Assembly: GCA_038046785.1 (NCBI GenBank)
Contig: JBBSVM010000001.1
Span: 75,665-139,664, forward strand
Source: Thermoplasmatota archaeon
GTDB taxonomy: Archaea > Thermoplasmatota > E2 > JACPAO01 > JAHFTW01
DNA: 64,000 nucleotides
Direction of reading: 5' to 3'
The translations under genes and the position numbers were made by a program. This document shows positions 6,226 to 40,086 of the stretch, piece by piece (the first letter of the stretch is position 1; every line of letters begins with the position of its first letter). Under the pieces are notes generated by a model. The model searched no databases. It had not been told where the DNA came from and was given only the letters and a program-made list of their open reading frames with translations.

Positions 6226-6226
6226 G

Positions 6227-6958
6227 CTACAGGGAGCGCGCCCGCCAGCTAAGGCCTTTGGCGCTGGCCGGCTCCTTGGCGTCGTTCTCCTCTTTGTACC
6301 CAACTTTGGCCGAGCGTGCAGAGGGGCAGAGGGTGGCGAGCGGGCAGACGCCGCAGCGCGGACGGCGCGCCACGCAGACCAGGCGCCCATGGTCGATGAC
6401 GCGGTGGGTATAGGCGGTCCAGCTCTCAGGGGGCAGCAACTGCTCCAGCGCGGCCGCAATGGTTTCCGGATTGGTGCCTTTGCTCAGTCCGAGGAATGCG
6501 TTGATGCGCACCATGTGGGTGTCCACCGTGACTCCGGCTCGGATGCCAAACGCGGTTCCGAGGACGGCGGTGGCAGTCTTGCGACCAACACCGGGCAGCG
6601 TGGTGAGTTCCTCGATCGTGCGCGGCACCTCGCCCGCAAACTCCTCAACAAGAAGGCCCGACAAAGCGCGGATGTTTTTCGCCTTGGCGCGCCACAAACC
6701 GATGGAGTCGATGGTGCGTTCGACCTCCCGCAGCGGCGCGGCGGCGAGGGCGACCGGCGTCGGCCAGCGCTTGAAGAGCGTGCGCGTCGCTTTGTTGACG
6801 GCAATATCGGTCGTCTGCGCCGAAAGCGCGGTTGCGACGAGGAGCTGGAACGGCGATGCGTGGTCGAGCGCACAGGTCGATTCCGGATAGGCCGACTCCA
6901 GCGCGGCGACGATGCGCAGGGCGCGCCGCGCCTTGTCCGCCTTCGTCTCCCTCGGCAC
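6227..6958 (-). CDS. nth: endonuclease III (DNA glycosylase/AP lyase)
   Basis: Carries the HhH-GPD motif LPGVGRKTA and the C-terminal 4Fe-4S cluster C-x6-C-x2-C-x5-C (CVARRPRCGVCPLATLC). GTG start at 6958; the track extension to 7300 was rejected. Confidence 0.85.
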   Translation of the reverse strand: MPRETKADKARRALRIVAALESAYPESTCALDHASPFQLLVATALSAQTTDIAVNKATRTLFKRWPTPVALAAAPLREVERTIDSIGLWRAKAKNIRALSGLLVEEFAGEVPRTIEELTTLPGVGRKTATAVLGTAFGIRAGVTVDTHMVRINAFLGLSKGTNPETIAAALEQLLPPESWTAYTHRVIDHGRLVCVARRPRCGVCPLATLCPSARSAKVGYKEENDAKEPASAKGLSWRARSL

Positions 6959-6990
6959 AACTCTTGCACGGGGCCAGAGTATGTGGACGT

Positions 6991-7377
6991 TCAGGCGCGG
7001 GGCGTCTTGTCCTGGACGAGGCCGATGATGTTGCCTTCGGTGTCCTCGAGGTAAGCAGAAAGGACGGGGCCGACATCCCGTTTCGGCAGGGCAACCTTGG
7101 CGCCGTTGGCCTGGGCCTTCGCGAGGGCGGCGTCGAGGTCGGCGACCTTGATGGTGACGACCGGGTGCTGGAGGACCGATTGACGCGTGAGCAGGCTGCC
7201 ATTGATGCGGGCCGGTTCTTTGGGCGCGAACGTCTTTGGGTCGATGGCCGTGGTTTTGGCAAACGCAAAGCCGATGCCGGGCGGGCGGTTCAACTCCCAA
7301 CCGAACGTCTGGCCGTAGAACTTCATGGCGCGCTCCATGTCGTCGGCGGGAAGTTCGAAGTGGACGACGGGGTCCAT
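6991..7377 (-). CDS. VOC (glyoxalase/bleomycin-resistance fold) family protein
   Basis: 128 aa. The N-terminus VHFELPADDMERAMKFYGQTFGW is typical of VOC proteins. Confidence 0.75.
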   Translation of the reverse strand: MDPVVHFELPADDMERAMKFYGQTFGWELNRPPGIGFAFAKTTAIDPKTFAPKEPARINGSLLTRQSVLQHPVVTIKVADLDAALAKAQANGAKVALPKRDVGPVLSAYLEDTEGNIIGLVQDKTPRA

Positions 7378-7450
7378 GCTAAAGGCAGCTACGTATTGCT
7401 GAATGAATTTTTTGTTGCCTTCTTGACCTTGGTCTTTACCCTACGCTGGC

Positions 7451-8392
7451 CTACTCTTGGAACATCGCTCCAAGTTCGGCCCGCCCAATAAGCTCCACGC
7501 CCGCGCGCTCAGCTAAGGAAATAGCTCCTTTTGTGAACGAACTACTTACTACAACTACGGCTCTAGAGCACGCATAGAATGTCTTTGCGGCAATTACTTC
7601 TTGAACGGCTGAGTTGCCAACGGGTGCATCCCAACGTTTCACCTGAATTGCGAGACGTTCGCCCCGGCCGTTTGCAATTAGATCTGCGCCTTGGTCACCG
7701 CTTCCGCCGTTCTTTAGCACCTTGTAGCCCATGGTTTCGTAGTACTTGGCAACAAAATCTTCGAACTCCGAGCCAGTCATGAAATCAATTGGCAGTTTGC
7801 TAGCTTTTGGCGCGCTTAGCGAGGCCTCATAGATTTTCAGAGACTCAATTTTTCCCGCAGTCTCCAATCTACGCAGCAAATCTGAGGGCACCGACAAGCT
7901 GCGGAAGGCAAGAAGTTGTAAAACTTGTGCAAGTTTTGTGGACGCATCTGTTCGAAATACTTTGGCCGTCGCGCTGACAATCTGGTCTACACTTTCGTCC
8001 GGGCCTAGTTCCAGCGTCGAAGCAAAATCTGCAATCTCCAGTGCTTTCTGCTCGCGATCCAAAATTCGTTGAAGCTGTTCACGATTGCCGAGGTAGCCTT
8101 TCAGAACAAGTAAGGCTTCGAATTTCTCAAGATCTGAGTCGCCATTTTCCAGATAGTTCCTTACCAAATCTCGATTAGCAGGCAACCCGAACCAGTCATT
8201 GGCACGCTTGTCTTTTTCCCGTACTTCTGCCTCCACCACGTCCCGTATCGCTGTTTCAGTTGGAAGCTCGCTCCCGGGCGGATGCACACGACGGCATCCA
8301 GCGCAAACCAACTTCTTGGTTCGGTTTTGCCACCAAAGTTTTGTCCCGCACGAGCACACTACGCGTGGTACAACCTCGCTTTTCCAAAACAT
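7451..8392 (-). CDS. Mrr-like restriction endonuclease domain protein with N-terminal zinc ribbon
   Basis: The C-terminus (GDQGADLIANGRGERLAIQVKRW..VGNSAVQEV) matches the Mrr_cat D-(D/E)xK core. The N-terminus has a CSCG...CAGC ribbon. The gene is visibly AT-richer than its neighbours. Confidence 0.75.
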   Translation of the reverse strand: MFWKSEVVPRVVCSCGTKLWWQNRTKKLVCAGCRRVHPPGSELPTETAIRDVVEAEVREKDKRANDWFGLPANRDLVRNYLENGDSDLEKFEALLVLKGYLGNREQLQRILDREQKALEIADFASTLELGPDESVDQIVSATAKVFRTDASTKLAQVLQLLAFRSLSVPSDLLRRLETAGKIESLKIYEASLSAPKASKLPIDFMTGSEFEDFVAKYYETMGYKVLKNGGSGDQGADLIANGRGERLAIQVKRWDAPVGNSAVQEVIAAKTFYACSRAVVVVSSSFTKGAISLAERAGVELIGRAELGAMFQE

Positions 8393-8395
8393 AAT

Positions 8396-9226
8396 CTAGT
8401 TGCCGCTGAAATTTGCGACGCGCTTCTCGACATAGGCAGCGATGCCTTCCTTGGCATCCTTGCTCGCGAACAGTTTGGCCTGCAGCTCGCGCTCCAGGGC
8501 GAGGCCGTACTCGAGGGGCAGCTCGGTGCCGCTCTGGACGCTGCGCTTGATGTGGCCGGCGGCCCAGGCGGCCTTGTTGGGGATGGTGAACTGGCCGGCG
8601 TAGTCCAGGATGGCTTGGCGGAAGCTGGCGGCGTCGCCGCCCTCGATGCGCTGGATGATGCCGAGCTCGAGCGCCTCCTCGAAGCTGATGTTGTTGCCGG
8701 TGACCATCATCTCGATGGCCTTGCCCTTGCCAACGATGCGGGCGAGGCGCTGCGTGCCACCGGTGCCAGCGAGGACACCGAGGTTGATTTCCGGGAGGCC
8801 GGTCTTGCCCGCGTCCTTGCGGGCGATGCGGATGTCGGCCGCCATGGCGATCTCGAGACCGCCGCCGACGGCGTGGCCGTTGAGCGCCGCGATGACCAGT
8901 TTCGGGGTCTGCTCGAGGCGCGAGAGCGTCTCGTTGGCGTGCAGGCAGAAATAATACTTGAAGCCGGGCGTGACACTGTTGAGCATCTGGATGCTCGCGC
9001 CCGCGGAGAAGAACTTCTCGCCGTTTCCGGTGAGAACGATGACGTGCACGTTGTCGTCGAAGCGCGCCTTGAGGACGGCCTCGTCGATGTCGCGCATCAT
9101 GAGGTGCGTGTAGGTGTTCGGGCCCGACTTGCCGGGTGCGAGCGGGGCGCCGGCCGCGTCGGAGGCGAGCTCGATGACGGCGATGCCGTTCGGGGTCGTC
9201 GCGTAGTTGACGAGCTTGTTCGTCAT
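8396..9226 (-). CDS. enoyl-CoA hydratase/isomerase (crotonase) family
   Basis: Crotonase blocks FSAGASI and ALNGHAVGGGLEIAMAADIRIA are present. Start is uncertain: ATG 9226 or ATG 9268. Confidence 0.85.
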   Translation of the reverse strand: MTNKLVNYATTPNGIAVIELASDAAGAPLAPGKSGPNTYTHLMMRDIDEAVLKARFDDNVHVIVLTGNGEKFFSAGASIQMLNSVTPGFKYYFCLHANETLSRLEQTPKLVIAALNGHAVGGGLEIAMAADIRIARKDAGKTGLPEINLGVLAGTGGTQRLARIVGKGKAIEMMVTGNNISFEEALELGIIQRIEGGDAASFRQAILDYAGQFTIPNKAAWAAGHIKRSVQSGTELPLEYGLALERELQAKLFASKDAKEGIAAYVEKRVANFSGN

Positions 9227-9326
9227 CGCGGTGAACTTGAGGGTCGCTTGAGCGGTGGCCTGGGCCATGGCCAAACCACAGGTGGGCGCCATTTGAATCC
9301 TGCTCCCGGCCCCTCCTGTGGCTGGC

Positions 9327-10043
9327 CTACAGGACGTAGGCGTAGAGGAACCAGAAGTGCATGGCCGACCCGAGGATGACGAGGAGGTGCCACGCCTCAT
9401 GGTCGCCCATCCAGCGGAACCCCGTCAGGTTGGTGAACAGGGTTGGCCGGTCACGCACGTAGAGGAACGCACCGCCGGAATAGACCAGGCCGCCACCGAT
9501 CAGCCAGCCCATGCCGCCCACGTCAAGGCGCGCCAGCAAGACGGGCGCGGCGATGACGGCGCACCAGCCGAGCGCCGTGTAGCCGAGGATGTGCACCCAT
9601 TTCGGTCCGAGTGGGACGGTGAGCGCGAGGACGAGGCCGACGATGGCGACCCCCCAGGCGAGCGCGAAGAGCACCCAGCCGAGCGTCCCCCCCACCAGGA
9701 GGAGGGCGACCGGGCTGTAGGTTCCGGCGATGAGGAGGTAGATGGCGACGTGGTCGAGCCGTTCCAGCCAGTGCTCGGCGCGCGCCCCGGGGACAGCGTG
9801 GTAGAGCGCGCTCATCGTGTAGAGCGCGACCAGGCCGAACGCGTAGAGCGCGACGGTCGCAAGGGCGAGCGGCTCGTCTGCGCGGACAAGCAGCAGCGGC
9901 AGCACAACGATGGCGACGCCGCCGGCCGCCATGTGGCTGATGCTGTTGAAGCGCTGGCGCAGCCCCACAACCCGTCCACTCGGTCGGGCCACTTGAAACC
10001 ACGCGCCGGCCCCCTGTCGCAAAACCGCTTGCTTATCTGCCAA
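9327..10043 (-). CDS. hemolysin III / PAQR family channel protein
   Basis: Seven hydrophobic segments with conserved SALYH, DHVAIYLLIAGTY and HEAWH blocks. TTG start. Confidence 0.8.
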   Translation of the reverse strand: MADKQAVLRQGAGAWFQVARPSGRVVGLRQRFNSISHMAAGGVAIVVLPLLLVRADEPLALATVALYAFGLVALYTMSALYHAVPGARAEHWLERLDHVAIYLLIAGTYSPVALLLVGGTLGWVLFALAWGVAIVGLVLALTVPLGPKWVHILGYTALGWCAVIAAPVLLARLDVGGMGWLIGGGLVYSGGAFLYVRDRPTLFTNLTGFRWMGDHEAWHLLVILGSAMHFWFLYAYVL

Positions 10044-10394: not shown

Positions 10395-10434
10395 CCACAG
10401 ATTTCACAGATGCCGTATCTGTGCAATCTGGGGT
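10395..10434. repeat. short copy of the palindromic CAGAT-unit junction repeat (CACAGAT variant)
   Basis: CCACAGATTTCACAGAT-GCCGT-ATCTGTGCAATCTGGGG lies in the 73-nt spacer between convergent stops (10380 and 10454). Confidence 0.8.
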
Positions 10435-10453: not shown

Positions 10454-11239
10454 TCAGATGGAGAAAAGCCGCCCGCCATCGACCGGCATGACGATGCCGC
10501 GCACGAACGACGCGGCAGGACTGCAGAGGAACGCGATGACCGCGCCGAGCTCGGTGGGCGTACCAAGGCGCCCCTCCGGTGTCGCGTCGATCCAGCTCTG
10601 CCGGATGGCTTTGGCGCCCTTGCCGGTGCGCAGGCCCATCTCCGTCTCCAAGTGCCCCAGCCGTTCGGTGTCGACGTAGCCGGGGAGGATGCTGTTGATG
10701 GTGATGCCGGGCGGCAACTCGCGGCTGAGGGTCTTGGCCCAACTCGCCATCGTGGCGCGGATGCTGTTGCTCACGCCGAGGCCGGCAATCGGCTCGCGAA
10801 CGCTGGAAGACAGAACGTTGACGATGCGGCCGTAGCCGGACTCTTTCATGCCGGGCAGCAGAGCCTGGACGAGCAGGTGGCTCGCCAGCAGATGGCGACC
10901 ATAGGGCTTGAGGAAGTCCGCCTCTTTCGCCTCCAGCAACGGCCCCGAGGGCGGCCCTCCGGTGTTGTTGATGAGGATTTGGATGGGGCCTGCCTTTTCC
11001 AGGTGCGCCTTCACTTGGCGCTCCAGGCCGGCGCGGTCGTCGAGGTCGGCCACCAGCATGTGCGTCTCCTGGGCGCCGGCATTCTTCAGGATGGGACGCA
11101 GCGCCGCAAGCTTGTCCGGGCTGCGGGCGAGCAGGGTAATGGTGGCGCCCAAACTGGCCAGTTCCATCGCGGCTGCCTTGCCGATGCCTTGGCTGGCGCC
11201 GCAGACCAGGGCGTGCCGTCCCGTGAGGTCAAGGTCCAC
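10454..11239 (-). CDS. SDR-family oxidoreductase (FabG-like)
   Basis: Carries the TGxxxGIG-type motif VCGASQGIGKA and the NNTG block. Last gene of the kynurenine-type operon. Confidence 0.85.
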   Translation of the reverse strand: MDLDLTGRHALVCGASQGIGKAAAMELASLGATITLLARSPDKLAALRPILKNAGAQETHMLVADLDDRAGLERQVKAHLEKAGPIQILINNTGGPPSGPLLEAKEADFLKPYGRHLLASHLLVQALLPGMKESGYGRIVNVLSSSVREPIAGLGVSNSIRATMASWAKTLSRELPPGITINSILPGYVDTERLGHLETEMGLRTGKGAKAIRQSWIDATPEGRLGTPTELGAVIAFLCSPAASFVRGIVMPVDGGRLFSI

Positions 11240-11269
11240 GCCGTGGCGACCGATGAGGGCGCTTTGATG

Positions 11270-11983
11270 CTACCGCTGATGTTCCCGGAGGACGGCGCGC
11301 ACCGGGCTCGCGTCGGCGTCCTCAAGCCGCAACGGCAAGGCGACGAGTTCGTAGTGGCCCGGCTTGACATGCGAAAGGACAAGCCCCTCCAGGTTCATCA
11401 TGCCGTGCCGGAAGAGCGCACGATGGGCAGGGAGCCCTTTGGAGTCGAACAGATCGGTGCTTGGCGTGTCGAAGCCGACGAGCACGACGCCGCGCTTGCC
11501 CAGGGCGTCGATGAGATCGGGCTCGGGCGCGGCGAAGTCGGAGTTCCAGTTCTCGGGGTCGGGGAAGGTCCCGGTCTTGAACAGGATGCGCGGCGCCGTC
11601 GGCTCCTGCACGAGGTCAACGAGGCCGAACCGTGTGCCGCGCTTGGCACGAACCTCGACCACTTGGCAGGGGCCGACGTAGGCGTCGAGCGGGAGGTCGC
11701 TGATGGCGCGCCCCTCATGGTGATAGTGCTGCGGGGCGTCGGTGTGGGCCCCGACATGGTAAGACGAATGGAAGTCGCCGAGGTCGATGCCGCCGCCTTC
11801 TGCCAAGCGTGCCGTCTTGCGCGCCGTGAAGGGAACGTCGCCGGGCCAGTTTGCGATGCGCGGGGAGACAAGCGGGCTGATGTCGAGGACGCGCGAAGCC
11901 TGCGAACTTGCTGCGGCGGAACCGGACGCGTCGGCCACCTGGTCGGCCAAGGTCTTGGCGTCGCGCCACGCTCCGGCCTTCAT
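11270..11983 (-). CDS. kynB: kynurenine formamidase / cyclase-family arylformamidase
   Basis: Cyclase-family metal motif HVGAHTDAPQH. The start overlaps the upstream stop (ATGA at 11980-11983). Confidence 0.75.
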   Translation of the reverse strand: MKAGAWRDAKTLADQVADASGSAAASSQASRVLDISPLVSPRIANWPGDVPFTARKTARLAEGGGIDLGDFHSSYHVGAHTDAPQHYHHEGRAISDLPLDAYVGPCQVVEVRAKRGTRFGLVDLVQEPTAPRILFKTGTFPDPENWNSDFAAPEPDLIDALGKRGVVLVGFDTPSTDLFDSKGLPAHRALFRHGMMNLEGLVLSHVKPGHYELVALPLRLEDADASPVRAVLREHQR

Positions 11984-13506
11984 CGGTTCTGTCCAATGTG
12001 CGCCACGACCTTGAACTCGACGGCAATCGGCGTCGGCAGCGCCTCGACCTGGACCGTCGTCCGCGTTGCTTGGATTTTGCCGAACGCCTTAGCGTACTCT
12101 TCGTTGAACGCCTTGAAATCGCGCTTCATGTCGGTGAGGAAGACCTGGACATCGAAGACGTCGGCAAGCGTCGCGCCCGATTCTTTGAGGACCGCCTCGA
12201 CGTTGGCGACGACCTGCCGCGTCTGCGCGACGATGTCGTACGCGAGCGGTTTGCCGGCGGCGTCGCGCGTCGGGCCGCCGGGGATGGCATCCGTACCGGG
12301 TGTGCGAGGTCCGATGCCGGCAAGGAAGAGCAGGTCGCCGACGCGGCGGGCGTGCGCGTAGGCGCCAACCGGCTTGGGCGCTGACTTTGCGTGGACGATG
12401 GCCTTGCTCGCCGGAGGAGTCGCCGAACTGGGCGCACCAGGATATCCTGCGCCACTGTCCTCATCCGCAGAGGAATGCGCGCCGCTCCAACGCTCGGTCT
12501 CGTCCGAGGTCTCGAACGCATTTGCCCCTCCGAGGACGTTGCGGTCGCCGTGGTGCTCGTCGGGGTCCGCCTCGTCGTACTCCTTGTCGGCCGCTGCTTT
12601 GCCGGTTGGAACCAGTTCGACGATGGCGGCGCCGGTACCGTAGATGGCCTCGTAGGCGTGCACGGTGCCGGCGAAATTGTTTGACTGGCCGGAAACGGCG
12701 GCGAGCCACCAGACCGCCTTCATCTTGGAGTCGCCGTTGGCCTGGCTGGCAAACTCGCGGGCGAGTTGGCTGGCATCCTCCAAACGGCCGCGGGAGAGGA
12801 ACTCGAGGTACTTGCGGTTCCACTCGTCGTCCTTGCGGCTGTGGATTTTGTCCTCCTTGAACGGAACGACGCCGCTGAAGAGCCGGTTGGAGAGCGCGGT
12901 GACGGCGACGGCGACGACGCGCAGACCGCGCTCGGCGATGGCTTCGCGCGCCGCCTTGCCAAGCACGATGGTCTCGGCGCGGTCGGCGTACATGTTGCAC
13001 GACACGATGCTGGCGGGAATCTTGTTGTCGGGGTTGAGAAGTTTCAGCGCGACGACGCTGCCGGTGTCCACGGGGAAACCGCGGTAGGAGACGGCGCGCA
13101 TCTCCAGGCCGCGCTTCTGGCCCGCCGCGACGTAGGCTTCGCCGAACGGCTTGTCCACGCGCAGCTTGTAAGGGATGACGCCGAGCTCGTGCCACTCCTC
13201 GTCCACGTGCGTCCACGCCGGTGCAGGGTCGGTCTGCACCTGGTGGCCGATGACGCTGGGCCAACGCGTCGAATAGAGAATGAGCAGGTCCGGCTTGAGT
13301 TCCTGGATGCGCTTTCGGACCTTCCCATAGGCGTCGCGGATGCGACGGTAGCCCGGGTTCGCGTCGGGCACCAGGAGCGGGTGCGGCAGGTGCGGGACAA
13401 TGAATGAGGCGACGACGCCCGACTGGGCCGCAGATTTCGCAGATTGCGCAGAGCTCCGACGGTTCTGCGAGGTCTGCGGAATCTGCGGTTTGGTCCGGCG
13501 CGTCAT
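11980..13506 (-). CDS. fusion of a LigB-type extradiol dioxygenase subunit (AmnA-like) and a RidA/YjgF deaminase domain, with a repeat-encoded N-terminal extension
   Basis: The N-terminal half resembles class III extradiol dioxygenase subunits (IVPHLPHPLL...). An acidic linker (DKEYDEADPDEHH...SADEDSG) follows. The C-terminal ~130 aa are RidA-like (VGAYAHARRVGDLLFLAGIGP...VEFKVVA). ATG 13506 overlaps the upstream stop (ATGA). Confidence 0.8.
   Translation of the reverse strand: MTRRTKPQIPQTSQNRRSSAQSAKSAAQSGVVASFIVPHLPHPLLVPDANPGYRRIRDAYGKVRKRIQELKPDLLILYSTRWPSVIGHQVQTDPAPAWTHVDEEWHELGVIPYKLRVDKPFGEAYVAAGQKRGLEMRAVSYRGFPVDTGSVVALKLLNPDNKIPASIVSCNMYADRAETIVLGKAAREAIAERGLRVVAVAVTALSNRLFSGVVPFKEDKIHSRKDDEWNRKYLEFLSRGRLEDASQLAREFASQANGDSKMKAVWWLAAVSGQSNNFAGTVHAYEAIYGTGAAIVELVPTGKAAADKEYDEADPDEHHGDRNVLGGANAFETSDETERWSGAHSSADEDSGAGYPGAPSSATPPASKAIVHAKSAPKPVGAYAHARRVGDLLFLAGIGPRTPGTDAIPGGPTRDAAGKPLAYDIVAQTRQVVANVEAVLKESGATLADVFDVQVFLTDMKRDFKAFNEEYAKAFGKIQATRTTVQVEALPTPIAVEFKVVAHIGQNR
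13427..13490. repeat. palindromic CGCAGAT-unit junction repeat, read in frame
   Basis: CCGCAGATTTCGCAGATTGCGCAGA-GCTCCGACGGT-TCTGCGAGGTCTGCGGAATCTGCGG lies within codons ~6-27 of the CDS ending at 13506. Confidence 0.85.
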
Positions 13507-14519
13507 GTCATCAACCTCGGCGTGACCTGGCGCGTCTTGGGATTGGGGTCCCACTCCAGCACGGCGTTGCCAGTGCCGATGACGGTGCCGTAGCCGTGGA
13601 GCTCTGCGGGATACGAAGGAAAGTCGAGCGCCGCGAGAAGCCACGACAAGCAGCCGGCGTCCGCTTCCGACGTCGCCTGGTCGATGAGGTCAGGCAGTTC
13701 GTCGAAGAGCTGCTTCCCTTTGCCGTCGCGGGCGAGGCCGATGGCGTGCATGTCCCACAAGTGCTGCCCGTGGTGGTAGATGTGCTCGTGGCTCATGTCC
13801 TCGGGCACCTTCGGCTCGCGGGTGAAGTGGCGGTGGCTGATGCTGTTGCTGGCGAGCAGCAAGGCGCGCTTGCCGGAAGCTTCGATGGCCTCCCGCGTCG
13901 CCTGGCCGAGGGCACGCATCTGCTCTTGGCCGACCTCGTTCGAGTAGTCGTTGTAGACGCGGCAGGAACTGATTCCGACGATGGGTTTGTCCCACTTCGG
14001 GTTCACGAGGTGGCACGCGGCGATGGTACCGTAGTCGATGCGGTACTCGGGGTTACGCATCATCTTCATCGTGAGCCCCTTCTTGGCGCCGCGGGCCGCG
14101 ATGTCCTCGGCCAACTCCACATCGACGTCGAAGTCGAAGTTGTAGCGGAACAGGTTGGGGAAGATGGGGTCCACGCTGAGCGATTTGAAGTGCGGAACGC
14201 CAAGAATGTGGTGGCCGACCCGGGTGCGCCAGTGCGGCGAGTGCACCAAAATGACATCGTAGTCGCGGGTGGCGCGGGCGAGACTGTGTCGGAGACGCTC
14301 GTAGCCCCAACGGATTGTCTCCCAGCCACCTTCACTGCGCGCCTCGTTCTGTTTCGGATTGTCGGCGTAGACGAGATGCGGCGGGTGCGGCGTGAGACAG
14401 CCGGCGACAATGGAGCCGCCTCCGGCCCGAACCGCAGATGACGCAGAGCGCGCAGACCGAACGTTCTTCTGCGCAATCTGCGCGATCTGCGGTTTGGTCG
14501 GGCGCTGTTTGCTGGCCAT
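13503..14519 (-). CDS. LigB-family extradiol ring-cleavage dioxygenase, catalytic (AmnB-like) subunit, with a repeat-encoded N-terminal extension
   Basis: Class III dioxygenase blocks are present (TPHPPHLVY, VLVHSPHW, SNSISHRH). There is no ATG/GTG/TTG between the repeat and the conserved domain. ATG 14519 lies 1 nt from the upstream stop. Confidence 0.85.
   Translation of the reverse strand: MASKQRPTKPQIAQIAQKNVRSARSASSAVRAGGGSIVAGCLTPHPPHLVYADNPKQNEARSEGGWETIRWGYERLRHSLARATRDYDVILVHSPHWRTRVGHHILGVPHFKSLSVDPIFPNLFRYNFDFDVDVELAEDIAARGAKKGLTMKMMRNPEYRIDYGTIAACHLVNPKWDKPIVGISSCRVYNDYSNEVGQEQMRALGQATREAIEASGKRALLLASNSISHRHFTREPKVPEDMSHEHIYHHGQHLWDMHAIGLARDGKGKQLFDELPDLIDQATSEADAGCLSWLLAALDFPSYPAELHGYGTVIGTGNAVLEWDPNPKTRQVTPRLMT
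14431..14493. repeat. palindromic CGCAGAT-unit junction repeat, read in frame
   Basis: CCGCAGATGACGCAGAGCGCGCAGA-CCGAACGTTCT-TCTGCGCAATCTGCGCGATCTGCGG. Confidence 0.85.
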
Positions 14520-14520
14520 C

Positions 14521-16065
14521 TCAGGTCTCCTTCATCGTGATGTTCTTCGCCTCGGAATAGAAATCGACCGACCACTCGCCGCCTTCGCGGCCGACGCCGG
14601 ACTCTTTGGAGCCGCCAAATGCGGTGGCAAGGTCGCGCACAAGCCAGCAGTTCACCCAGACCATGCCGGTCTCCAGTCGCTCCGCAACGCGGCGCGCTTT
14701 CGTCGCGTCTTTCGTCCAGACGGTGGCCGTCAGGCCATAGCGGACGCCGTTCGCCAACGCAATGGCTTCGGCTTCATCCCTGAAGGACTGCACGGTGACG
14801 ACGGGTCCAAAAATCTCCTCTTGGATGAGCCGACTCTCCTGCACGACGCCGGTGACGAGGGCGGGGGTCAGGAACGCGCCGTCGGCAAGCTCGCCTGCGA
14901 TGGTCGGCCGGTCGCCGCCGCAGAAAACCTTGGCCTCTTTGCGCGCCAAGTCAAGGTAGCCTTCGACCTTGGTGCGATGCGCAAGCGAGTTGAGGGGACC
15001 GATGTCGGTCGCCTCGTCGCGCGGGTCGCCCACCTTGAGCGCTTTCACCGCTGCCTCCAGCTTTGACAAGAATTTGGCCAACAAGCTCTGCTCGACGAGG
15101 ACGCGGCTCGTGCAGAGGCAAACCTGGCCGCCGTTCGTGAAACCGCCGCGAACCACGCCTGCGACCGCAGCATCGAGGTCACAGTCCGCGAAAACAACCG
15201 CAGGATTCTTGCCGCCGAGCTCCAGGCTGAGTTTCTTGGGCGGGCCAGAGGCGGCGGCCTGCGCAACTTTGGCGCCTGTGGCTGTGCCACCGGTGAAACT
15301 CACGGCACGGACGTCCGGGTTCCGGATGAGCGGGTCGCCCGCCTCGGGACCGAGCCCCTGCACGACGTTGTAAAGTCCGTCGGGGAGGCCCGCCTCGGCA
15401 AGCAGGTCGGCAAGAGCGTCGGCGGTGCGCGGCGTCAACTCGCTCGGCTTCGCGACGACCGCATTGCCGAGACCGAGCGCGGGGGCGACCTTCCAGGTCA
15501 GCAAGTAGAGTGGGAGGTTCCAGGGCGTGACGAGGCCGACGACGCCGACCGGAGTGCGCGATGTGGAGTGGACCCAGCCGTCGCTGTGGAACTCCGGCTC
15601 TGTGCGCTGCTCGAGGAAGTCGGCGTAGAAGCGGAAGTTGCGCGCGGCCCGTGGGATGTCGAGCGTGCGGGCGAGTCGAATGGGTTTGCCCGTGTCTTCC
15701 GACTCCATGCGCGCGAGCCGGTCAAGGTCGCGCTCGATGAGTTCTGCGGTGCGGCGCAGGATGCGGCAACGCTCGGCAAGTTCGAGGCTTGCCCACGAGG
15801 GCTGCGCCTTCGTCGCGGCGACCACCGCGGCATCGACGTCCTCGGCGTTGCCGCGCGGGACCTTGCACAGCACGACGTTGCGCGCCGGGTCCACGTTGTC
15901 GAGGTAGGCACCGGATGCGGGCGCCATCTTGCGGCCGCCAATGCGCTGCGACAGGCGCGGAACCGATTCGGCTTGAACATCGCGCTTGGCGTGGCCGTAG
16001 GCGCGGGCAAGGTCGCGTTGCGCCACTTCACGGTCGCGCTGGAGCCAGCCGAATCCTTCGCTCAC
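14521..16065 (-). CDS. NAD(P)-dependent aldehyde dehydrogenase (2-aminomuconate/2-hydroxymuconate semialdehyde dehydrogenase-like)
   Basis: ALDH blocks FTGGTATG, LELGGKNP and a catalytic Cys region (GQVCLCTSR). The GTG start overlaps the upstream stop (GTGA at 16062-16065). About 30 aa of extra N-terminus. Confidence 0.85.
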   Translation of the reverse strand: MSEGFGWLQRDREVAQRDLARAYGHAKRDVQAESVPRLSQRIGGRKMAPASGAYLDNVDPARNVVLCKVPRGNAEDVDAAVVAATKAQPSWASLELAERCRILRRTAELIERDLDRLARMESEDTGKPIRLARTLDIPRAARNFRFYADFLEQRTEPEFHSDGWVHSTSRTPVGVVGLVTPWNLPLYLLTWKVAPALGLGNAVVAKPSELTPRTADALADLLAEAGLPDGLYNVVQGLGPEAGDPLIRNPDVRAVSFTGGTATGAKVAQAAASGPPKKLSLELGGKNPAVVFADCDLDAAVAGVVRGGFTNGGQVCLCTSRVLVEQSLLAKFLSKLEAAVKALKVGDPRDEATDIGPLNSLAHRTKVEGYLDLARKEAKVFCGGDRPTIAGELADGAFLTPALVTGVVQESRLIQEEIFGPVVTVQSFRDEAEAIALANGVRYGLTATVWTKDATKARRVAERLETGMVWVNCWLVRDLATAFGGSKESGVGREGGEWSVDFYSEAKNITMKET

Positions 16066-17294
16066 GGCTCATGCCCCCGCATCAACGGCTGGCTGCCGAT
16101 GTAGTCGTCGTTGTCGTAGGTCCAGTGGTCGGTGTCAGGGTCCCACTCGTCCCATGTCGCAATCGAGCCGAGCGCCTTCAGGAACTTCGGCGGGACGACG
16201 CCCGGAACAATGAACGCCTTCTGCCGGTGCAGCGGGTAGGGGTTGCGCAGCGTGAAGCCGAGGACGCCGAGAATGGCACGCGCGACATACCAGGTCGCCC
16301 TCGGGTTCCAGCCATGCGCGATCTTGACGACGACGCCGAGGCCGTCGGGGTAGTCGGGATGCTCGATGGCGAGGCCGAGCAGGCCGTCGGCGCCTTCCTT
16401 GGCGATGACTTTGCCGCCGCACGATTTCAGGATGGTCGTGTCGAGCCGGTTGAAGCCGCCCACAAGGTCCGGGTTGCGCACCATCGCCTCCCATACCCAG
16501 TCCTTCTTGCGCGTCTTGGCGAGGTGGGCGTAGAGGATGGCGAGCTCGTTGACCGTGTTGCTGAGCGTTGGCAGGCCGCAGCCGTCGCGCGCCGTGCGGG
16601 CGGGGGTCCACTTCGGGCCGAGGATATCGGCGACGACCTTCGTGTAGGCCTGGAACCAGGGGTGCTGCGGCAGCAGGTAGCCGATGCGCGGCCAGCCTTT
16701 CGCCTTGCAGCCGGCAAGGATGGCGGCGTGCTCACCTGAGCAGGTGTGGTACCAGCGGCGCGGACGGCGCACGCTGCGGCCAAACGGGACGAGCGGCAGA
16801 TCGAGCGGCGCCTGCATGAGGCCCCACTCCGTCTCATGGAGAAGGCTCTGCGCGGCTGCGACGTGCTCGGTGTCGCCGTTGTGTGAGGCGAGCGCGATGG
16901 CTTTCTGCTCCCACGATGACGTTGCCAGCTCTTTTGCGAACACTTTCATCGCGAGCGGCTTCATCATGCTGCGGCCGTAGCAGAGAACGTTGCCGCCGAA
17001 CGAGTGAATGAGTTTGCCACCGTGCGCCCACGCGACGGCGCCGTGAATGGTCGTCTCCGAAATGCCGAGGCGACGGTAGTCCACGAGTGGCTCCCACTCG
17101 ACGTCGCGGCCCGTGGGGATTCCTTTCTCGCGTGTGCCAAGAGGGCCCTCTGGGTAGAGCTCGGAGCCGGGGCCCTGAATGCGGTCGCCTTGGCCGTCAC
17201 TGCGAGCGCCCGTTTTGGTCGCAGATTTCACAGATTTGCGCAGAACGCGTTTCTGTGGCTTCTGCGCAATCTGCGACTTCGTCCGGCGCGTCAC
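16062..17294 (-). CDS. asparaginase-II (PF06089-like) family protein with a repeat-encoded N-terminal extension
   Basis: The family core contains the RDGCGLP block. Track ORF 16062..18071 was trimmed to GTG 17294, which overlaps the LLM gene stop (GTGA). About 55 aa precede the conserved domain. Confidence 0.7.
   Translation of the reverse strand: MTRRTKSQIAQKPQKRVLRKSVKSATKTGARSDGQGDRIQGPGSELYPEGPLGTREKGIPTGRDVEWEPLVDYRRLGISETTIHGAVAWAHGGKLIHSFGGNVLCYGRSMMKPLAMKVFAKELATSSWEQKAIALASHNGDTEHVAAAQSLLHETEWGLMQAPLDLPLVPFGRSVRRPRRWYHTCSGEHAAILAGCKAKGWPRIGYLLPQHPWFQAYTKVVADILGPKWTPARTARDGCGLPTLSNTVNELAILYAHLAKTRKKDWVWEAMVRNPDLVGGFNRLDTTILKSCGGKVIAKEGADGLLGLAIEHPDYPDGLGVVVKIAHGWNPRATWYVARAILGVLGFTLRNPYPLHRQKAFIVPGVVPPKFLKALGSIATWDEWDPDTDHWTYDNDDYIGSQPLMRGHEP
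17217..17277. repeat. palindromic CGCAGAT-unit junction repeat, read in frame
   Basis: TCGCAGATTTCACAGATTTGCGCAGA-ACGCGTT-TCTGTGGCTTCTGCGCAATCTGCGA. Confidence 0.85.
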
Positions 17295-18553
17295 GCGGCG
17301 ACCTCCTTGCGAGCGAGTTTGGGCGTGACTTTCTCCATGAAAGCCGCCATGTTGCGAATGACGCGGTCGGAATCGTGGTTGAAGAAATCGAACCAGAGCA
17401 TGAGACGGTCGTCGGAGTGGTAGCGCGCGGCAAGCTGTTGCGCAACGTCGTCGGCGGTGCCGATGACAGCGTTGTCGGACGCCTCGCCGACTTTCTTCGG
17501 GTCGAGGGTGCCCTCCAGGGCGTTCCAATATGCGGCGAGCGCTGCCTTCGCCTCCGCCTGCGCGGCGGCGCGCCGTTGCTCGGGCGAGAGGACCGGCTCC
17601 TCGTTGAGGAAGACCAGGACGGTGCGCGGCATGTAGCTGCGTTTCCACGGGCCGCCCTCCTTGTGGAACACCTTGCGCATCCGTTCGTGCGTCGCGTCGA
17701 TGACGGTGCCCGGCGTGATGCTCAAATTGGCGACGTGGGCGGGCAGGAACTTGTTGGCGAGTTCGTGCGCCTGAGGATCGTGCGAGCCGACGACGAGCTG
17801 CACCAGTTCGCGGCGCCACGCCTGCGGGATAATTTTGAGGGGGTCGAAATGGAACTGCTTCGGGACGCGGATGCGTTCGTTTTCTCCCCCCGCCATCGAC
17901 GAGAGCCTGCCTTCCGCTTTCGCCGCGTCGCGTGCCTTCAGCCACTCCGGCTCGCTGCGGAAGTCTGCGCGGCCGATGGTGCGTTCCGGGACCTGGCCGC
18001 CAGCCAGCGTCTCTCCCGAGAGCAGCCTGGAGAAAACCTCGCAGGCCTCGAGAAAGACGGTGCCTTTCCACAACCCGAAGGGCAGCGCTTTCTCGAGCGG
18101 AGTGCGCGGCTCGATGCCGTAGGCGCGATTCATGTAATCGAAACGGCCGGCACTGAAGCCGACGTGGATGCGGCGCCGTTCGGCGGGGTCGAGGCCGTGC
18201 AGGGCCGCGAACATCGCGATGCGCTCCGCCGCGGCGACCGGGCCGCCGTTGCAGAGGATGTTCATGACGGCAGAGCCCACCTCGATGCGCTTGGTGCGGC
18301 GGAAGATCGCATGGGCGAACTGCAGCATGTCTGCGTTGAGGCCGACCTCCCCCTGCCAGTGCGGGATGACGGGAAGCCGGTTGCCCTTCTGCACTTCACT
18401 GCTAAGATGGCTTTCCGCGAGCCAGGCGACGCCGAAGCCGAGCCGATCCGCCGCCTCGATTTGCGCCATCGCGTTGGCGAACATCTCGCGCTCCGTCGGC
18501 GTGCGCCCCGCGACGGGGGTCTGGCTGATGGAGAGGAAAAGGTCGAACTCCAC
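17291..18553 (-). CDS. LLM-class (luciferase-like) flavin-dependent oxidoreductase
   Basis: 420 aa. The N-terminus EFDLFLS...AEAADRLGFGVAWLAESH is typical of luciferase-like monooxygenases. GTG start. Confidence 0.7.
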   Translation of the reverse strand: MEFDLFLSISQTPVAGRTPTEREMFANAMAQIEAADRLGFGVAWLAESHLSSEVQKGNRLPVIPHWQGEVGLNADMLQFAHAIFRRTKRIEVGSAVMNILCNGGPVAAAERIAMFAALHGLDPAERRRIHVGFSAGRFDYMNRAYGIEPRTPLEKALPFGLWKGTVFLEACEVFSRLLSGETLAGGQVPERTIGRADFRSEPEWLKARDAAKAEGRLSSMAGGENERIRVPKQFHFDPLKIIPQAWRRELVQLVVGSHDPQAHELANKFLPAHVANLSITPGTVIDATHERMRKVFHKEGGPWKRSYMPRTVLVFLNEEPVLSPEQRRAAAQAEAKAALAAYWNALEGTLDPKKVGEASDNAVIGTADDVAQQLAARYHSDDRLMLWFDFFNHDSDRVIRNMAAFMEKVTPKLARKEVAA

Positions 18554-18596
18554 GTCAAACCGTCCAGGGGTTGGTGCGCTTGAAGCCTGCGGACGG

Positions 18597-19415
18597 CTAC
18601 GCCGGGCTCGTCCCGGCTTGGTGCGTCACTTGGTTGCGCACGGTCCAGAGGGCGGGCCAGAGGGCGCCCTGGACATCCACCTCAAGCTGATGGACGGCAT
18701 AGCCCTTCAGGCTCTTGACGTCGCGGCCGATGATGCGCTTGACCAGGGCGAGGTGGGTCTGGCGCCAGAGCGTGAACGCCATGTCGACATCAGTCATCAT
18801 CTCAAGCAGCCGCAGGACATCGGGCTGCGAGCGAGGCTGGACGTAGATGGAGAGGATGTCGCTCTTGCGTCGCTTGAGGAGATCCTGGACTTTGGGCCAG
18901 AGGGCGGGCGCCTGCTGCTGAATCTGCCGGAACCCGGGCGACTCGGCGCCGGAGCCCTGTCCGAGAGCGGCGCGAATGACGTGGAAGTCCCACGGCGTCA
19001 TCGTCTCCAGGACCCGCAGCGCTTCCGTGTTGATGCGGAGCGTCGCGGAGGCACGCGCGAGAAGGGGATAGGCCTCAACCAGGCGGTCCTGCTCGATGAG
19101 GGTGCCAACACTCTTCAGCTCGAAGAGAACCAGCTTACACCACAGCTCGAACGACTGGTGCACAACTTGGAACATCAGTTCATCGTGGTGGACCCGCTCG
19201 CCCTCGGATTTCTGCAGCGCAAGCAGTTCCGGCACGCGCATGTAGGTCTCGTAGTCGGTGGTCTTGCCACTGGAGAGTCGTTGTGGGTTGTTGTGGCCAA
19301 TGGGGCCGACGCCGGAGACCGCTGAGGCGGCGGCGGCGACCCAGTCGCCCGCCTTCCCGGCCGCCCGTTTCGCCTTCTCCTTGATGCCCGTTCCTTTCGT
19401 GGAGGGGGGTTCCAT
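18597..19415 (-). CDS. kynA: tryptophan 2,3-dioxygenase
   Basis: TDYETYMRVPELLALQ...HDELMFQVVHQSFELW matches the TDO signature region. ATG 19415 preferred over GTG 19430. Confidence 0.8.
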   Translation of the reverse strand: MEPPSTKGTGIKEKAKRAAGKAGDWVAAAASAVSGVGPIGHNNPQRLSSGKTTDYETYMRVPELLALQKSEGERVHHDELMFQVVHQSFELWCKLVLFELKSVGTLIEQDRLVEAYPLLARASATLRINTEALRVLETMTPWDFHVIRAALGQGSGAESPGFRQIQQQAPALWPKVQDLLKRRKSDILSIYVQPRSQPDVLRLLEMMTDVDMAFTLWRQTHLALVKRIIGRDVKSLKGYAVHQLEVDVQGALWPALWTVRNQVTHQAGTSPA

Positions 19416-19749: not shown

Positions 19750-20937
19750 GTGGCCGTCGATTTCACCCTCACGGATGAGCAGCGTTTGATTCGCGACATG
19801 ACGCGCGCCTTCGTCAACGAGCACATCACCCCCGAGATTGTCCGGGTCTGGGAGCAGGCGGGCGACCACCCGCACGACATCTACGAGAAGATGGCTGCAC
19901 AGGGCTTGCTTGGTGCTCCGTTCCCCACCGAATACGGCGGCGGCGGCCTCGACGCGGTAAGCTACGCCATCCTCACCGAGGAGCTCGCGAAGGGCTGCAG
20001 CAGCCTGCGCACCTCCATCTCCGTGCACGGCTCGCTGTGCGGTTCCACCCTCAAGGGTTTCGCCTCCGCCGAGCAGAAGAAGAAGTGGCTCCCCGACATG
20101 GCCGCCGGCAAGAAGCTCGGCGCCTGGGCGCTCACCGAACCGGGCTCCGGCTCCGACGCCGCCGGCATGTCCACCACCGCCAAACTGGAGGGCAACCACT
20201 ACGTCCTCAACGGCACGAAAGCGTGGATCTCGAACGGCGGCATCGCCGATCATGTCATCGTCTACGCCAAGACCAACCCCGCCCTCAAGCACAAGGGCAT
20301 CAGCTGCTTCATGGTCGAGAAGGGCACCGAAGGGTTCGAGTGCGTTGGCGTCGAGACCAAGAACAAGCTCGGTCTGCGCAGCAGCCCGACCGCAACACTC
20401 GCTTTCACCGATTGCCGCATCCCGAAAGAGAACCTCATCGGCAAAGAGGGCGACGGGTGGAAGAACGCCATGTACGTTCTCAACCACGGCCGCCTTTCTG
20501 TGGCAGCCGGTGGAGTTGGAATCGCCCAAGCCGCGTACGAGGCGAGCCTGAAGTACGCGAGCGAACGCAGCGCCTTCGGCCGCCCCATCGGCAACTACCA
20601 GCTCGTCCAGGCGATGCTCGCCGACATGGATGTACAGATTCAGGCGGGCCGCCTCCTCGTGTGGGAAGCCGCCCGCAGCCGCGAGGCGTACGACCGCGGC
20701 GAAATCACGCGCGACCAGTGGACCCTCGCCGTCAGCCGCGCCAAGCTGTTTGTGGCCGAGATGAGCCTCAAGGTGTGCGAGGACGCCATCCAGGTGCACG
20801 GCGCCAACGGCTACACCGACGCCTACCCCGTGGAGCGCTACTGGCGCGATGCGAAGATTCTGGGGATTTACGAGGGCACGAACCAAATTCAACGCCTCAT
20901 CATTGGTCGGCTTGTGACTGGCTTGCGCGACACGTAG
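19750..20937 (+). CDS. acyl-CoA dehydrogenase
   Basis: Full-length ACAD architecture with the C-terminal [12 protein letters not shown] block. Confidence 0.9.
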
Positions 20938-30390: not shown

Positions 30391-30470
30391 TCGCAGATTG
30401 CGCCGATTTCTCAGATTTTTCCTTCGCGCAGAACGGCGAGTCTGCGTCATCTGAGCAATCTGCGCCAAGC
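30391..30470. repeat. palindromic CGCAGAT-unit junction repeat, non-coding copy
   Basis: GTCGCAGATTGCGCCGATTTCTCAGATT...GCGCAGAACGGCGAG-TCTGCGTCATCTGAGCAATCTGCGCC fills the 85-nt spacer between convergent stops (30389 and 30475). Confidence 0.85.
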
Positions 30471-34066: not shown

Positions 34067-34103
34067 ACACAGATTTCACAGATGCCTCTGTGAGCCGCTC
34101 TGG
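34067..34103. repeat. short/decayed copy of the CAGAT-unit repeat
   Basis: ACACAGATTTCACAGATGCC-TCTGTGAGCCGCTCTGG. The left arm is nearly identical to the copy at 10395. Confidence 0.65.
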
Positions 34104-34142
34104 CTGGAATTCGTTCGTGGGTATTCGCTTCCCGCCAAAATG

Positions 34143-39985: not shown

Positions 39986-40013
39986 GACGCCCACGACTAC
40001 GCCTCCCCGACGA

Positions 40014-40075: not shown

Positions 40076-40086
40076 CGGTAGGGCAT

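Follow-up and report, generated by a model that had tools for sequence, protein, structure and literature searches.

A gene cluster of Thermoplasmatota and several bacterial phyla proposed to carry tryptophan to 2-aminophenol without kynureninase

A 64,000-nucleotide stretch of DNA from a Thermoplasmatota archaeon (contig JBBSVM010000001.1, positions 75,665 to 139,664; here called the window) carries on its minus strand, from 19415 to 10454, eight co-oriented genes that we propose to encode a pathway of tryptophan catabolism. In order, they code for a tryptophan 2,3-dioxygenase (TDO)-like protein, a luciferase-like (LLM) flavin-dependent oxygenase, an asparaginase-II-like (AsnII-like) hydrolase, an aldehyde dehydrogenase (ALDH), the AmnB-like and AmnA-like subunits of a 2-aminophenol dioxygenase, the second of them fused to a RidA domain, a kynurenine formamidase (KynB) and a short-chain dehydrogenase/reductase (SDR) (Table 1). 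Aerobic bacteria turn kynurenine into anthranilate through kynureninase, or into 3-hydroxyanthranilate through kynurenine 3-monooxygenase (KMO) and kynureninase. We think it probable that the cluster described here leads from tryptophan through 2-aminophenol to 2-aminomuconate, with the LLM and AsnII-like proteins as the connecting steps. That the operon is a kynureninase-independent route of tryptophan catabolism, with a Baeyer-Villiger and a hydrolase step, we hold somewhat more probable than its opposite, and the specific Baeyer-Villiger and amidase chemistry that we assign to the LLM and AsnII-like proteins could equally well be right or wrong. These conclusions draw on comparative genomics and chemical logic. 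The cluster would be a widely distributed and apparently undescribed variant of tryptophan catabolism.

The two ends of the pathway and the distribution of the cluster

The ring-cleavage genes are the most clearly assigned part of the cluster. Over residues 35-325, AmnB matched the catalytic β subunit CnbCb of 2-amino-5-chlorophenol 1,6-dioxygenase (3vsg_B, 368 bits) and the β subunits of 2-aminophenol dioxygenases (8ihg_A, 356 bits; 7txy_B, 342 bits). Of these top matches in the PDB, 7txy may be the Micromonospora enzyme of the ARO loci discussed below. His45, His96 and Glu285 of AmnB align with His13, His62 and Glu251 of CnbCb, which we take to be its 2-His-1-carboxylate Fe(II) ligands; both histidines are invariant in 45 orthologues, and Glu285 was placed by the pairwise alignment with CnbCb alone. 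The AmnA part of the next protein scored higher with α subunits in the PDB (187 bits with 7txy_A, then 149 and 147 bits) than with β subunits. For its RidA domain (PF01042, 84 bits) the best solved match was a 2-aminomuconate deaminase (6izh, 80 bits), ahead of generic RidA proteins. An acidic, low-complexity linker, about 70 residues long in the window, connects the AmnA and RidA domains. All seven top PDB matches of the ALDH were 2-aminomuconate 6-semialdehyde dehydrogenases (AMSDH), at 420-450 bits (4u3w, 450; 4i1w, 423), and its scores with the NCBIfam equivalogs for hydroxymuconic-semialdehyde dehydrogenase (549-551 bits) lay below their cut-offs. The arginines of its DIPR and VRDL motifs, the catalytic Cys (GQVCLC) and the Glu (ELGGKN) align with AMSDH, where, on our understanding of the residue roles, Arg120 and Arg464 of the P. 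fluorescens enzyme hold the substrate carboxylate. Judged by sequence, this half of the cluster is a 2-aminophenol pathway at the level of orthologues; the PDB matches and aligned residues bear out the initial annotation, made from the window alone, and show that the two LigB proteins, the ALDH and the RidA domain are specifically AmnB-, AmnA-, AmnC- and AmnD-like.

The tryptophan end would be provided by the TDO-like protein and KynB. The TDO-like protein scored 108 bits with PF03301 (Trp_dioxygenase; cut-off 34.9), and its best solved relatives were bacterial TDOs (2nw7, 84 bits). Its HHDE and WRQTH motifs correspond in the alignment to the regions around His55 and His240 of XcTDO, with both the distal and the proximal haem histidine kept; the arginine that corresponds to the carboxylate-binding Arg117 is also kept, and Tyr113 is replaced by Phe. 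The roles of His55, Tyr113, Arg117, His240 and the Thr254 loop in XcTDO are those that we presume. The protein likely uses free L-tryptophan. KynB scored 209.5 bits with the arylformamidase equivalog TIGR03035, below the cut-off of 223.05, and its four top PDB matches were all kynurenine formamidases, aligned over the full length at 145-171 bits (4cog, 171; 4cob, 163), which supports its assignment as kynB. Taken over the whole operon, Pfam, NCBIfam and solved-structure searches agreed with the domain and gene assignments first made for all eight genes.

To see how far the gene set is conserved, relatives of the LLM were searched in one genome per species. The search gave matches in 465 species genomes, among them the closed Latescibacterota chromosome CP070763.1 and the 6.9-Mb Myxococcota contig CBDCGT010000001.1; the best 80 loci of the 465 were analysed further by tblastn with the eight window proteins. 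All 80 are in metagenome-assembled genomes (MAGs), and most of the carriers are bacterial; they belong to Thermoplasmatota, Myxococcota/Deltaproteobacteria, Planctomycetota, Bdellovibrionales, Acidobacteria, Latescibacterota, Krumholzibacteriia and other groups. Presence of each gene was counted in those 43 loci whose sequence runs on for 7.5 kb or more downstream of the LLM gene (Table 1). AsnII follows immediately on LLM in 43/67 loci, and the SDR gene stands immediately upstream of LLM in 33/71, all of them bacterial. The typical bacterial order is [TDO]-SDR-LLM-AsnII-ALDH-AmnB-AmnA/RidA-KynB, and AmnA is fused to RidA in 33 of 37 related loci across phyla (for example at 14765-16078 in L021 and 11581-12879 in L064). 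Median identity of the window proteins to their bacterial orthologues ranges from 51% (KynB) to 72% (AsnII). The set is thus kept across Thermoplasmatota and several bacterial phyla, which answers the question of synteny in related archaea; the window itself is archaeal, as the description of an archaeal operon had it, and the cluster as such is not specific to archaea. The SDR and the AmnA-RidA fusion, listed at first as operon members, prove in addition to be a conserved core component and a hallmark of the whole cluster type, respectively. Two loci with the archaeal type of gene order and N-terminal extensions of the TKPQ type carry other labels, L008 (JAZJZE010000009.1) being labelled 'bacterium' and L006 'Halobacteriales archaeon'; their LLMs are 68-70% identical to that of the window, and the labels may be imprecise, both being perhaps relatives of Thermoplasmatota.

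TDO genes stand beside the cluster, upstream of LLM, in 27 of the 80 loci (L004-L083), and they fall into three lineages: the short archaeal form, a long canonical bacterial form, and a third form about 30% identical to both. Those of the bacterial clusters have canonical length and carry the IGTGGS loop. Independent recruitment of three TDO lineages is good evidence that tryptophan is the input. We also looked for the enzymes that usually connect kynurenine to ring cleavage. Among about 58 open reading frames (ORFs) of the window, picked by length and by a filter on GC content at third codon positions (GC3) as a non-exhaustive gene call, none encoded kynureninase, KMO, cupin 3-hydroxyanthranilate dioxygenase (HAAO), aminocarboxymuconate semialdehyde (ACMS) decarboxylase (ACMSD), a flavin reductase, or 4-oxalocrotonate decarboxylase, hydratase or aldolase; the sole Aminotran_5 match lay inside GcvPB. 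When 507 additional ORFs from the related loci were clustered, the conserved families likewise included neither kynureninase, KMO, HAAO or ACMSD nor a flavin reductase, genes of a lower meta-pathway, a transporter or a regulator; what recurred there were TDOs, the archaeal acyl-CoA dehydrogenase (ACAD), a second, ordinary SDR and unrelated genes. The reported absence of the canonical connecting enzymes from the operon and the window is confirmed for the scanned ORFs and, in the related loci, for some 10 kb to either side. Synteny, the adjacency of LLM and AsnII and the three TDO lineages all support the idea, present in the initial annotation, that the LLM and AsnII-like proteins take the place of KMO, kynureninase, HAAO and ACMSD on the way to a substrate of the aminophenol type.

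Connecting enzymes, proposed route and alternatives

The LLM scored 48 bits with PF00296 (Bac_luciferase; cut-off 27.9), reached no NCBIfam model and had by sequence a single PDB match, to a LuxA-like chain at 21 bits. Only 290 relatives were found at E<=1e-3 among 1.84 billion cluster representatives, most of them fragments of its own family. Despite this isolation in sequence, family members from archaea and several bacterial phyla share 56-91% identity, which points to strong constraint, horizontal spread or both. An AlphaFold (AF2) model (pLDDT 86.9) had the TIM-barrel LLM fold, and Foldseek returned 109 PDB matches at E<=1e-3; the matches listed were all LLM-fold enzymes dependent on FMN or F420. 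The best was RslO1 (7bip; TMt 0.74, 17% identity), and 2i7g, luciferases, RutA, SsuD and Mer were also among those listed, at 14-18% identity. No diketocamphane monooxygenase appeared among the Foldseek matches listed or among the sequence matches. With a 21-bit match, no NCBIfam model and generic fold neighbours only, we gave up reading the reaction from homology. By pathway logic alone, we propose that the LLM is a Baeyer-Villiger monooxygenase that attacks the aryl ketone of either kynurenine or N-formylkynurenine. Nucleophilic attack of a flavin peroxide on carbonyls is typical of several LLMs, including bacterial luciferase, the diketocamphane Baeyer-Villiger monooxygenases and RutA, and in Baeyer-Villiger oxidation of aryl alkyl ketones such as acetophenones it is the aryl group that migrates preferentially.

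The AsnII-like protein scored 173 bits with PF06089 (Asparaginase_II) and is only distantly related (67 bits) to the class-3 asparaginases ReAIV and ReAV, from which it differs by an extra N-terminal stretch of some 70 residues. The nucleophile of ReAV is Ser48, and its proton relay consists of Lys51, Ser80 and Lys263; Arg47 holds the α-carboxylate of L-Asn in place, and the zinc ligands are Cys135, Lys138 and Cys189 (PMC12292245). Four of these residues, Arg47, Ser48, Lys51 and Ser80, have equivalents (R108-S109-x-x-K112 and S137) that do not vary among 58 orthologues; K299, the equivalent of Lys263, is kept in 57 of them, and the two cysteines in 55. Conservation of the nucleophilic Ser, of both Ser-Lys tandems and of the Arg that holds the α-carboxylate fits a β-aspartyl substrate. 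We file the protein as a distinct subfamily, as its sequence indicates, and not as an asparaginase.

The third connector is an SDR of classical fold with an atypical active site. It has the glycine motif (GASxGIG) and the Arg typical of NADPH binding; in all 47 orthologues, however, the Ser-Tyr-Lys triad is broken, with Ser or Gly at the Tyr position and Arg at the Lys position, while S146, N158, R161 and K169 are invariant. The nearest structures, from Burkholderia (5va8, 5vps and 5idx), share the S-N-x-x-R motif and are deposited only as 'Short-chain dehydrogenase/reductase SDR'; a full-text search of the literature with their PDB codes gave nothing relevant. Because the SDR and LLM genes are tightly linked in bacteria, even where the cluster is split (L027 and L078), and because no flavin reductase was found, the SDR may be an NAD(P)H-dependent partner from which the LLM receives its reduced flavin. 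Alternatively, as an SDR with Ser in place of Tyr presumably resembles C=C reductases such as 2,4-dienoyl-CoA reductase, one may speculate that the enzyme reduces 4-oxalocrotonate or 2-aminomuconate towards 2-oxoadipate, to be followed by the neighbouring acyl-CoA genes.

Put together, these assignments suggest the following route. The TDO would open the indole ring to give N-formylkynurenine, and KynB would remove the formyl group, as their family assignments imply. The reduced-flavin peroxide of the LLM would then insert an oxygen atom into the bond that links the ketone carbon of kynurenine to its aromatic ring, with migration of the aryl group, and the product would be L-aspartate 4-(2-aminophenyl) ester, which should readily rearrange to N4-(2-hydroxyphenyl)-L-asparagine. 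We propose that the AsnII-like Ser-Lys hydrolase cleaves this N4- or O4-aryl asparagine analogue, that is, the β-aspartyl 2-aminophenyl ester or N4-(2-hydroxyphenyl)asparagine, to L-aspartate and 2-aminophenol. On the strength of orthologue-level similarity, AmnB/AmnA would convert 2-aminophenol to 2-aminomuconate 6-semialdehyde, the ALDH would oxidise this to 2-aminomuconate, and the RidA domain fused to AmnA would deaminate it to 4-oxalocrotonate. The order of the early steps may also differ, with the LLM acting on N-formylkynurenine and KynB then on 2-formamidophenol. As connectors the cluster has only a flavin-peroxide enzyme, a Ser-Lys acyl hydrolase with the asparagine-binding Arg and an atypical SDR, and Baeyer-Villiger oxidation followed by hydrolysis is the simplest chemistry that puts each of them to use.

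Several observations weigh against this route. The TDO-like protein reached 126.8 bits with the equivalog TIGR03036, whose cut-off is 390.7, and it has SLKGY in place of the GTGGS loop (the Thr254 loop) that binds the substrate ammonium group; its substrate might be a tryptophan derivative. The original name kynA is accordingly retained at the level of the Pfam family and for both haem histidines, and is not carried by the equivalog score or by a full set of L-tryptophan recognition residues, hence the term TDO-like. The family of the LLM has no characterised member and shares with other LLMs a generic fold likeness (17% identity). The subfamily of the AsnII-like protein has no characterised enzyme either, and Glu occupies the position of the zinc ligand Lys138 in 55 of 58 orthologues, which departs from the Cys-Lys-Cys site. 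An SDR serving as flavin reductase would be unusual, and a dedicated flavin reductase is not present; nor does the cluster encode an enzyme for the fate of 4-oxalocrotonate. In L022, L032, L033, L070 and L075, SDR and LLM are accompanied by AsnII and/or ALDH, with no Amn genes within about 10 kb. Canonical kynU, KMO, HAAO and ACMSD could lie elsewhere in the carrier genomes. Finally, a full-text literature search, with subscription journals mostly outside its coverage, returned no description of the cluster and no Baeyer-Villiger reaction on kynurenine that could serve as precedent.

Because the archaeal TDO-like protein is atypical, the most serious alternative is a different entry substrate, some other indolic, aryl-ketone or aryl-amide compound that the LLM, AsnII-like and SDR enzymes would tailor, free L-kynurenine then not being what the LLM acts on. 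Such a compound could be a derivative of tryptophan, kynurenine that is N-acylated or bound in a peptide, or a conjugate of aminophenol from the environment. The divergence of the TDO-like protein (127 against 391 bits, Phe for Tyr113, no ammonium loop) speaks for it, as do the TDO genes found beside the cluster in just 27 of 80 loci and the fact that the proposed route gives the SDR no step. We nevertheless consider it unlikely, given that KynB is close to an equivalog arylformamidase (209.5 against 223 bits) and occurs in 30 of the 43 full loci, that the bacterial clusters have TDOs of canonical length with the IGTGGS loop, that three TDO lineages converge on the cluster, and that the Arg for the α-carboxylate is kept in both the TDO-like and the AsnII-like proteins. 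A KynA/KynB kynurenine module could also have come to lie next to an independent 2-aminophenol pathway by chance, with LLM, AsnII and SDR unrelated to either. Four loci (L027, L044, L062 and L078), in which the cluster is split into an SDR-LLM-ALDH block and a RidA-KynB-AsnII-AmnB-AmnA block, would fit such a juxtaposition, and Amn genes are not nearby in some loci. The split blocks, however, interleave the two supposed modules, AsnII and KynB going with AmnBA and ALDH with LLM; the gene set recurs across bacterial phyla and Thermoplasmatota, with 4-nt overlaps in the window, and no conserved family in the related loci consumes kynurenine in another way. Chance neighbourhood is in our view very improbable.

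Two further alternatives keep kynurenine as the intermediate and change its chemistry. In one, close to what the initial wording 'occupy their place' implied for the LLM and AsnII-like proteins, the LLM would replace KMO and give 3-hydroxykynurenine, the AsnII-like protein would replace kynureninase and give 3-hydroxyanthranilate, and AmnBA would replace HAAO. This would retain the textbook intermediates, and AMSDH and a RidA-type deaminase also serve the canonical bacterial 3-hydroxyanthranilate pathway. Kynureninase, however, performs a C-C cleavage that depends on pyridoxal 5'-phosphate (PLP), whereas a Ser-Lys hydrolase of the β-lactamase/glutaminase fold in which the asparaginase machinery is kept is an acyl-transfer enzyme; cleavage of 3-hydroxyanthranilate gives ACMS and so needs ACMSD, which was found neither among the scanned window ORFs nor among the conserved neighbours; and the 368-bit match of AmnB is to dioxygenases characterised on 2-aminophenols that lack a carboxylate. 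The chance of such a hydroxylation pathway seems to us small. In the other, the alkyl group would migrate, the LLM would form O-anthraniloyl-serine, the hydrolase would release anthranilate and serine, and anthranilate would then be made into the ring-cleavage substrate. Enzymes can override the intrinsic migratory aptitude of the Baeyer-Villiger reaction, and anthranilate is the usual bacterial breakdown product of kynurenine. We give this the least credence, since anthranilate dioxygenase, CoA ligase and decarboxylating hydroxylase are all missing from the cluster, an AmnBA-type enzyme requires an ortho-aminophenol, and an asparaginase-like enzyme suits a β-aspartyl acyl group and not the anthraniloyl ester of serine. 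Aryl migration followed by release of 2-aminophenol and aspartate is the reading that we prefer.

Operon architecture, palindromic repeats and flanking genes

The reading of ORFs and junctions agreed with the initial description of an eight-gene, co-oriented and mostly overlapping operon, as four of the seven junctions are 4-nt overlaps (Table 1). All eight ORFs have a GC3 of 0.81-0.86, as real genes should in a window of about 66% GC. The high GC content and REP-like repeats had first raised the suspicion of a bacterial origin, which was ruled out. Sequence features place the window in the archaea (Thermoplasmatota), because it has an archaeal RNase P RNA at 50000-50292 (118 bits), an SRP54 whose best score is with the eukaryal/archaeal model and a LonB of archaeal type, and because the closest homologues of the LLM are in Thermoplasmatota MAGs (70-91% identity).

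Table 1. Coordinates of the operon genes, the divergent neighbour and the palindromic repeats in the window, with the junction of each operon gene to the next and gene presence in the 43 loci
Feature	Position	Strand	Details	Junction to next gene	Present in loci
TDO-like haem protein, short and divergent	18597..19415	(-)	272 aa from ATG 19415; GTG at 19430 a possible upstream start	43-nt gap	
LLM (luciferase-like) flavin-dependent oxygenase	17291..18553	(-)	PF00296	GTGA overlap	
AsnII-like Ser-Lys amidohydrolase, class 3 (R. etli type)	16062..17294	(-)	PF06089	GTGA overlap	39/43
ALDH, predicted 2-aminomuconate 6-semialdehyde dehydrogenase (AmnC/AMSDH-like)	14521..16065	(-)	Aldedh 547 bits	1-nt gap	39/43
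AmnB-like 2-aminophenol 1,6-dioxygenase β (catalytic) subunit	13503..14519	(-)	LigB 72.5 bits; ~33-aa N-terminal extension	ATGA overlap	34/43
AmnA-like (non-catalytic α) subunit fused to RidA/YjgF deaminase domain	11980..13506	(-)	508 aa; LigB 56 bits, Ribonuc_L-PSP 84 bits	ATGA overlap	AmnA 33/43; RidA 29/43
KynB, kynurenine (aryl)formamidase	11270..11983	(-)	Cyclase; TIGR03035	30-nt gap	30/43
SDR, atypical, classical fold, without YxxxK dyad	10454..11239	(-)	adh_short, adh_short_C2		32/43
ACAD, divergently transcribed	19750..20937	(+)	all three ACAD domains		
Repeat in AsnII-like gene, first ~29 codons	17207..17293	(-)	hairpin -46 kcal/mol, z -5.1; in frame, stop-free		
Repeat in amnB, codons ~6-32	14422..14504	(-)	hairpin -59.9 kcal/mol, z -5.7		
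Repeat in amnA-ridA, codons ~3-30	13416..13500	(-)	hairpin -54.6 kcal/mol, z -6.4		
Short repeat copy just past the SDR stop codon, 3' end of operon	10398..10430	(-)	hairpin -23.8 kcal/mol, z -4.6		
Further intergenic repeat copies	30394-30462, 34070-34256, 40027-40071				

The window contains a palindromic repeat built of 9-nt units (CGCAGATTG and similar), whose motif CAGATTKCRCAGA has 16 matches in the whole window against 0.27 expected. Three copies lie inside operon genes (Table 1), in frame and free of stops, and would add to each protein a basic, Gln-rich N-terminus of about 30 residues (RRTKPQIAQ...SARSA). For amnB and amnA we ruled out that the repeats are untranslated spacers before later starts, as neither gene has an ATG, GTG or TTG between the repeat and the conserved N-terminus; the AsnII-like gene has an internal GTG at 17231, a possible start. 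Bacterial orthologues begin right at the conserved N-terminus and have no repeat-encoded extension. In other Thermoplasmatota loci the same three genes have comparable extensions, and each locus has its own repeat variant (CCGCGGAAC units in L010, CACAGATT units in L013). The repeat structure at the archaeal junctions was recognised by inspecting individual sequences; a comparison of hairpin minimum free energy between archaeal and bacterial junctions was uninformative, since the high-GC background folds almost as well. The repeat could serve RNA-level control in the polycistronic mRNA, encode a peptide tag or be a tolerated mobile element. The in-frame palindromic elements of Rickettsia are reportedly similar.

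The divergently transcribed ACAD gene adjoins the operon. Among the NCBIfam models, all of which it matched below their cut-offs, that of the glutaryl-CoA dehydrogenase Acd ranked second (323 bits). Its orthologues lie upstream of TDO in eight archaeal loci (L004, L009, L012, L013, L016, L037, L067 and L069), and the linkage was seen only within the archaeal lineage. The window further encodes an enoyl-CoA hydratase (8396-9400) and a 2-oxoacid dehydrogenase complex (38519-43844), which may, with the ACAD, relate to a continuation through 2-oxoadipate and glutaryl-CoA. Elsewhere, GC falls to 0.61 over 6001-8000, and a protein with an Mrr-type restriction endonuclease domain (7451-8392, minus strand) adjoins a glyoxalase-like gene (6991-7377); the region 6001-8400 may be a small foreign insert. 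Several long ORFs at 36309-38426 (minus strand) and 60135-63879 have a strong coding signal and no Pfam match. They include a 705-aa protein just downstream of the LonB gene, with a 4-nt overlap, and others of 374, 387 and 364 aa.

Relation to known pathways and biological meaning

The lower half of the cluster shares AmnB, AmnA, AmnC and a RidA-type deaminase, with active-site residues kept, with the 2-aminophenol meta-cleavage systems of Pseudomonas sp. AP-3, P. pseudoalcaligenes JS45, Comamonas sp. CNB-1 (cnbC/cnbZ) and Burkholderia xenovorans LB400 (PMC3790839). It differs from them in that amnA and amnD, separate in the LB400 cluster amnRJBACDFEHG (PMC3790839), are fused, and in that the lower pathway of 4-oxalocrotonate decarboxylase, hydratase, aldolase and acetaldehyde dehydrogenase is not part of the window cluster. 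The source of the substrate differs as well, being nitrobenzene, chloronitrobenzene or free 2-aminophenol in those systems and, as we propose, tryptophan here. With the kynABU route and the kynA/kynB/KMO/kynU/HAAO/ACMSD/AMSDH route, the cluster has in common a top of TDO and KynB and a bottom of AMSDH and 2-aminomuconate deaminase. Between them the canonical routes use KMO, PLP-dependent kynureninase, cupin HAAO and ACMSD, whereas the window cluster has LLM, AsnII-like protein, SDR and AmnBA, and the amino acid released on the way would be aspartate, not alanine.

The logic that we propose, from aryl ketone to aryl ester, then to phenol and acid and on to ring cleavage, is reportedly also that of Pseudomonas fluorescens ACB, in which the 4-hydroxyacetophenone monooxygenase HapE and then the esterase HapD are said to free a ring-cleavable phenol. 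HapE is a single-component type I Baeyer-Villiger monooxygenase using FAD and NADPH, and HapD an α/β esterase, whereas the window has an LLM and an asparaginase-like hydrolase and an amino-acid substrate. The LLM belongs to the same fold superfamily as the type II Baeyer-Villiger monooxygenases, which use FMN and have the LLM fold, such as the 2,5- and 3,6-diketocamphane monooxygenases (reviewed in PMC8706424); the likeness is at the level of fold, without a sequence relationship. Those enzymes need free reduced flavin from a separate reductase, and so would the LLM. The AsnII-like protein is in the same Pfam family as ReAIV and ReAV of Rhizobium etli and shares with them the catalytic residues and both Cys (PMC8602277, PMC12292245), but they serve the use of asparagine and it sits in an aromatic-catabolic operon. 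Actinobacterial loci for ARO microcompartments also combine a 2-aminophenol dioxygenase with a semialdehyde dehydrogenase, in hosts that are not pollutant degraders (PMC10470539). That 2023 paper states that the natural precursor of 2-aminophenol in ARO pathways is unknown. The ARO loci carry no genes for TDO, KynB, LLM or AsnII, terms that the paper nowhere uses; ARO loci have shell proteins, and the window cluster has none.

If the route is right, metabolic reconstructions of the carriers, abundant environmental lineages that at present would be scored as having an incomplete kynurenine pathway, would be corrected. The 2-aminophenol dioxygenases, known mainly from the degradation of pollutants, would gain a natural source of substrate, and testable functions could be given to an isolated LLM clade and to the class-3 asparaginase subfamily with Glu for Lys. 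More tentatively, and with slightly less than even confidence, we suggest that the LLM is the first Baeyer-Villiger monooxygenase known to act on a catabolite of a proteinogenic amino acid, that the AsnII-like protein is a β-aspartyl aryl-ester/anilide hydrolase, that tryptophan is degraded by a third route independent of PLP, in which the widespread 'xenobiotic' pathway for 2-aminophenol meets its natural substrate, and that the in-frame repeat of the archaeal operon may coordinate, at the RNA or the protein level, the three enzymes that carry it. A flavin-dependent Baeyer-Villiger enzyme for an aryl ketone derived from an amino acid could also interest biocatalysis.

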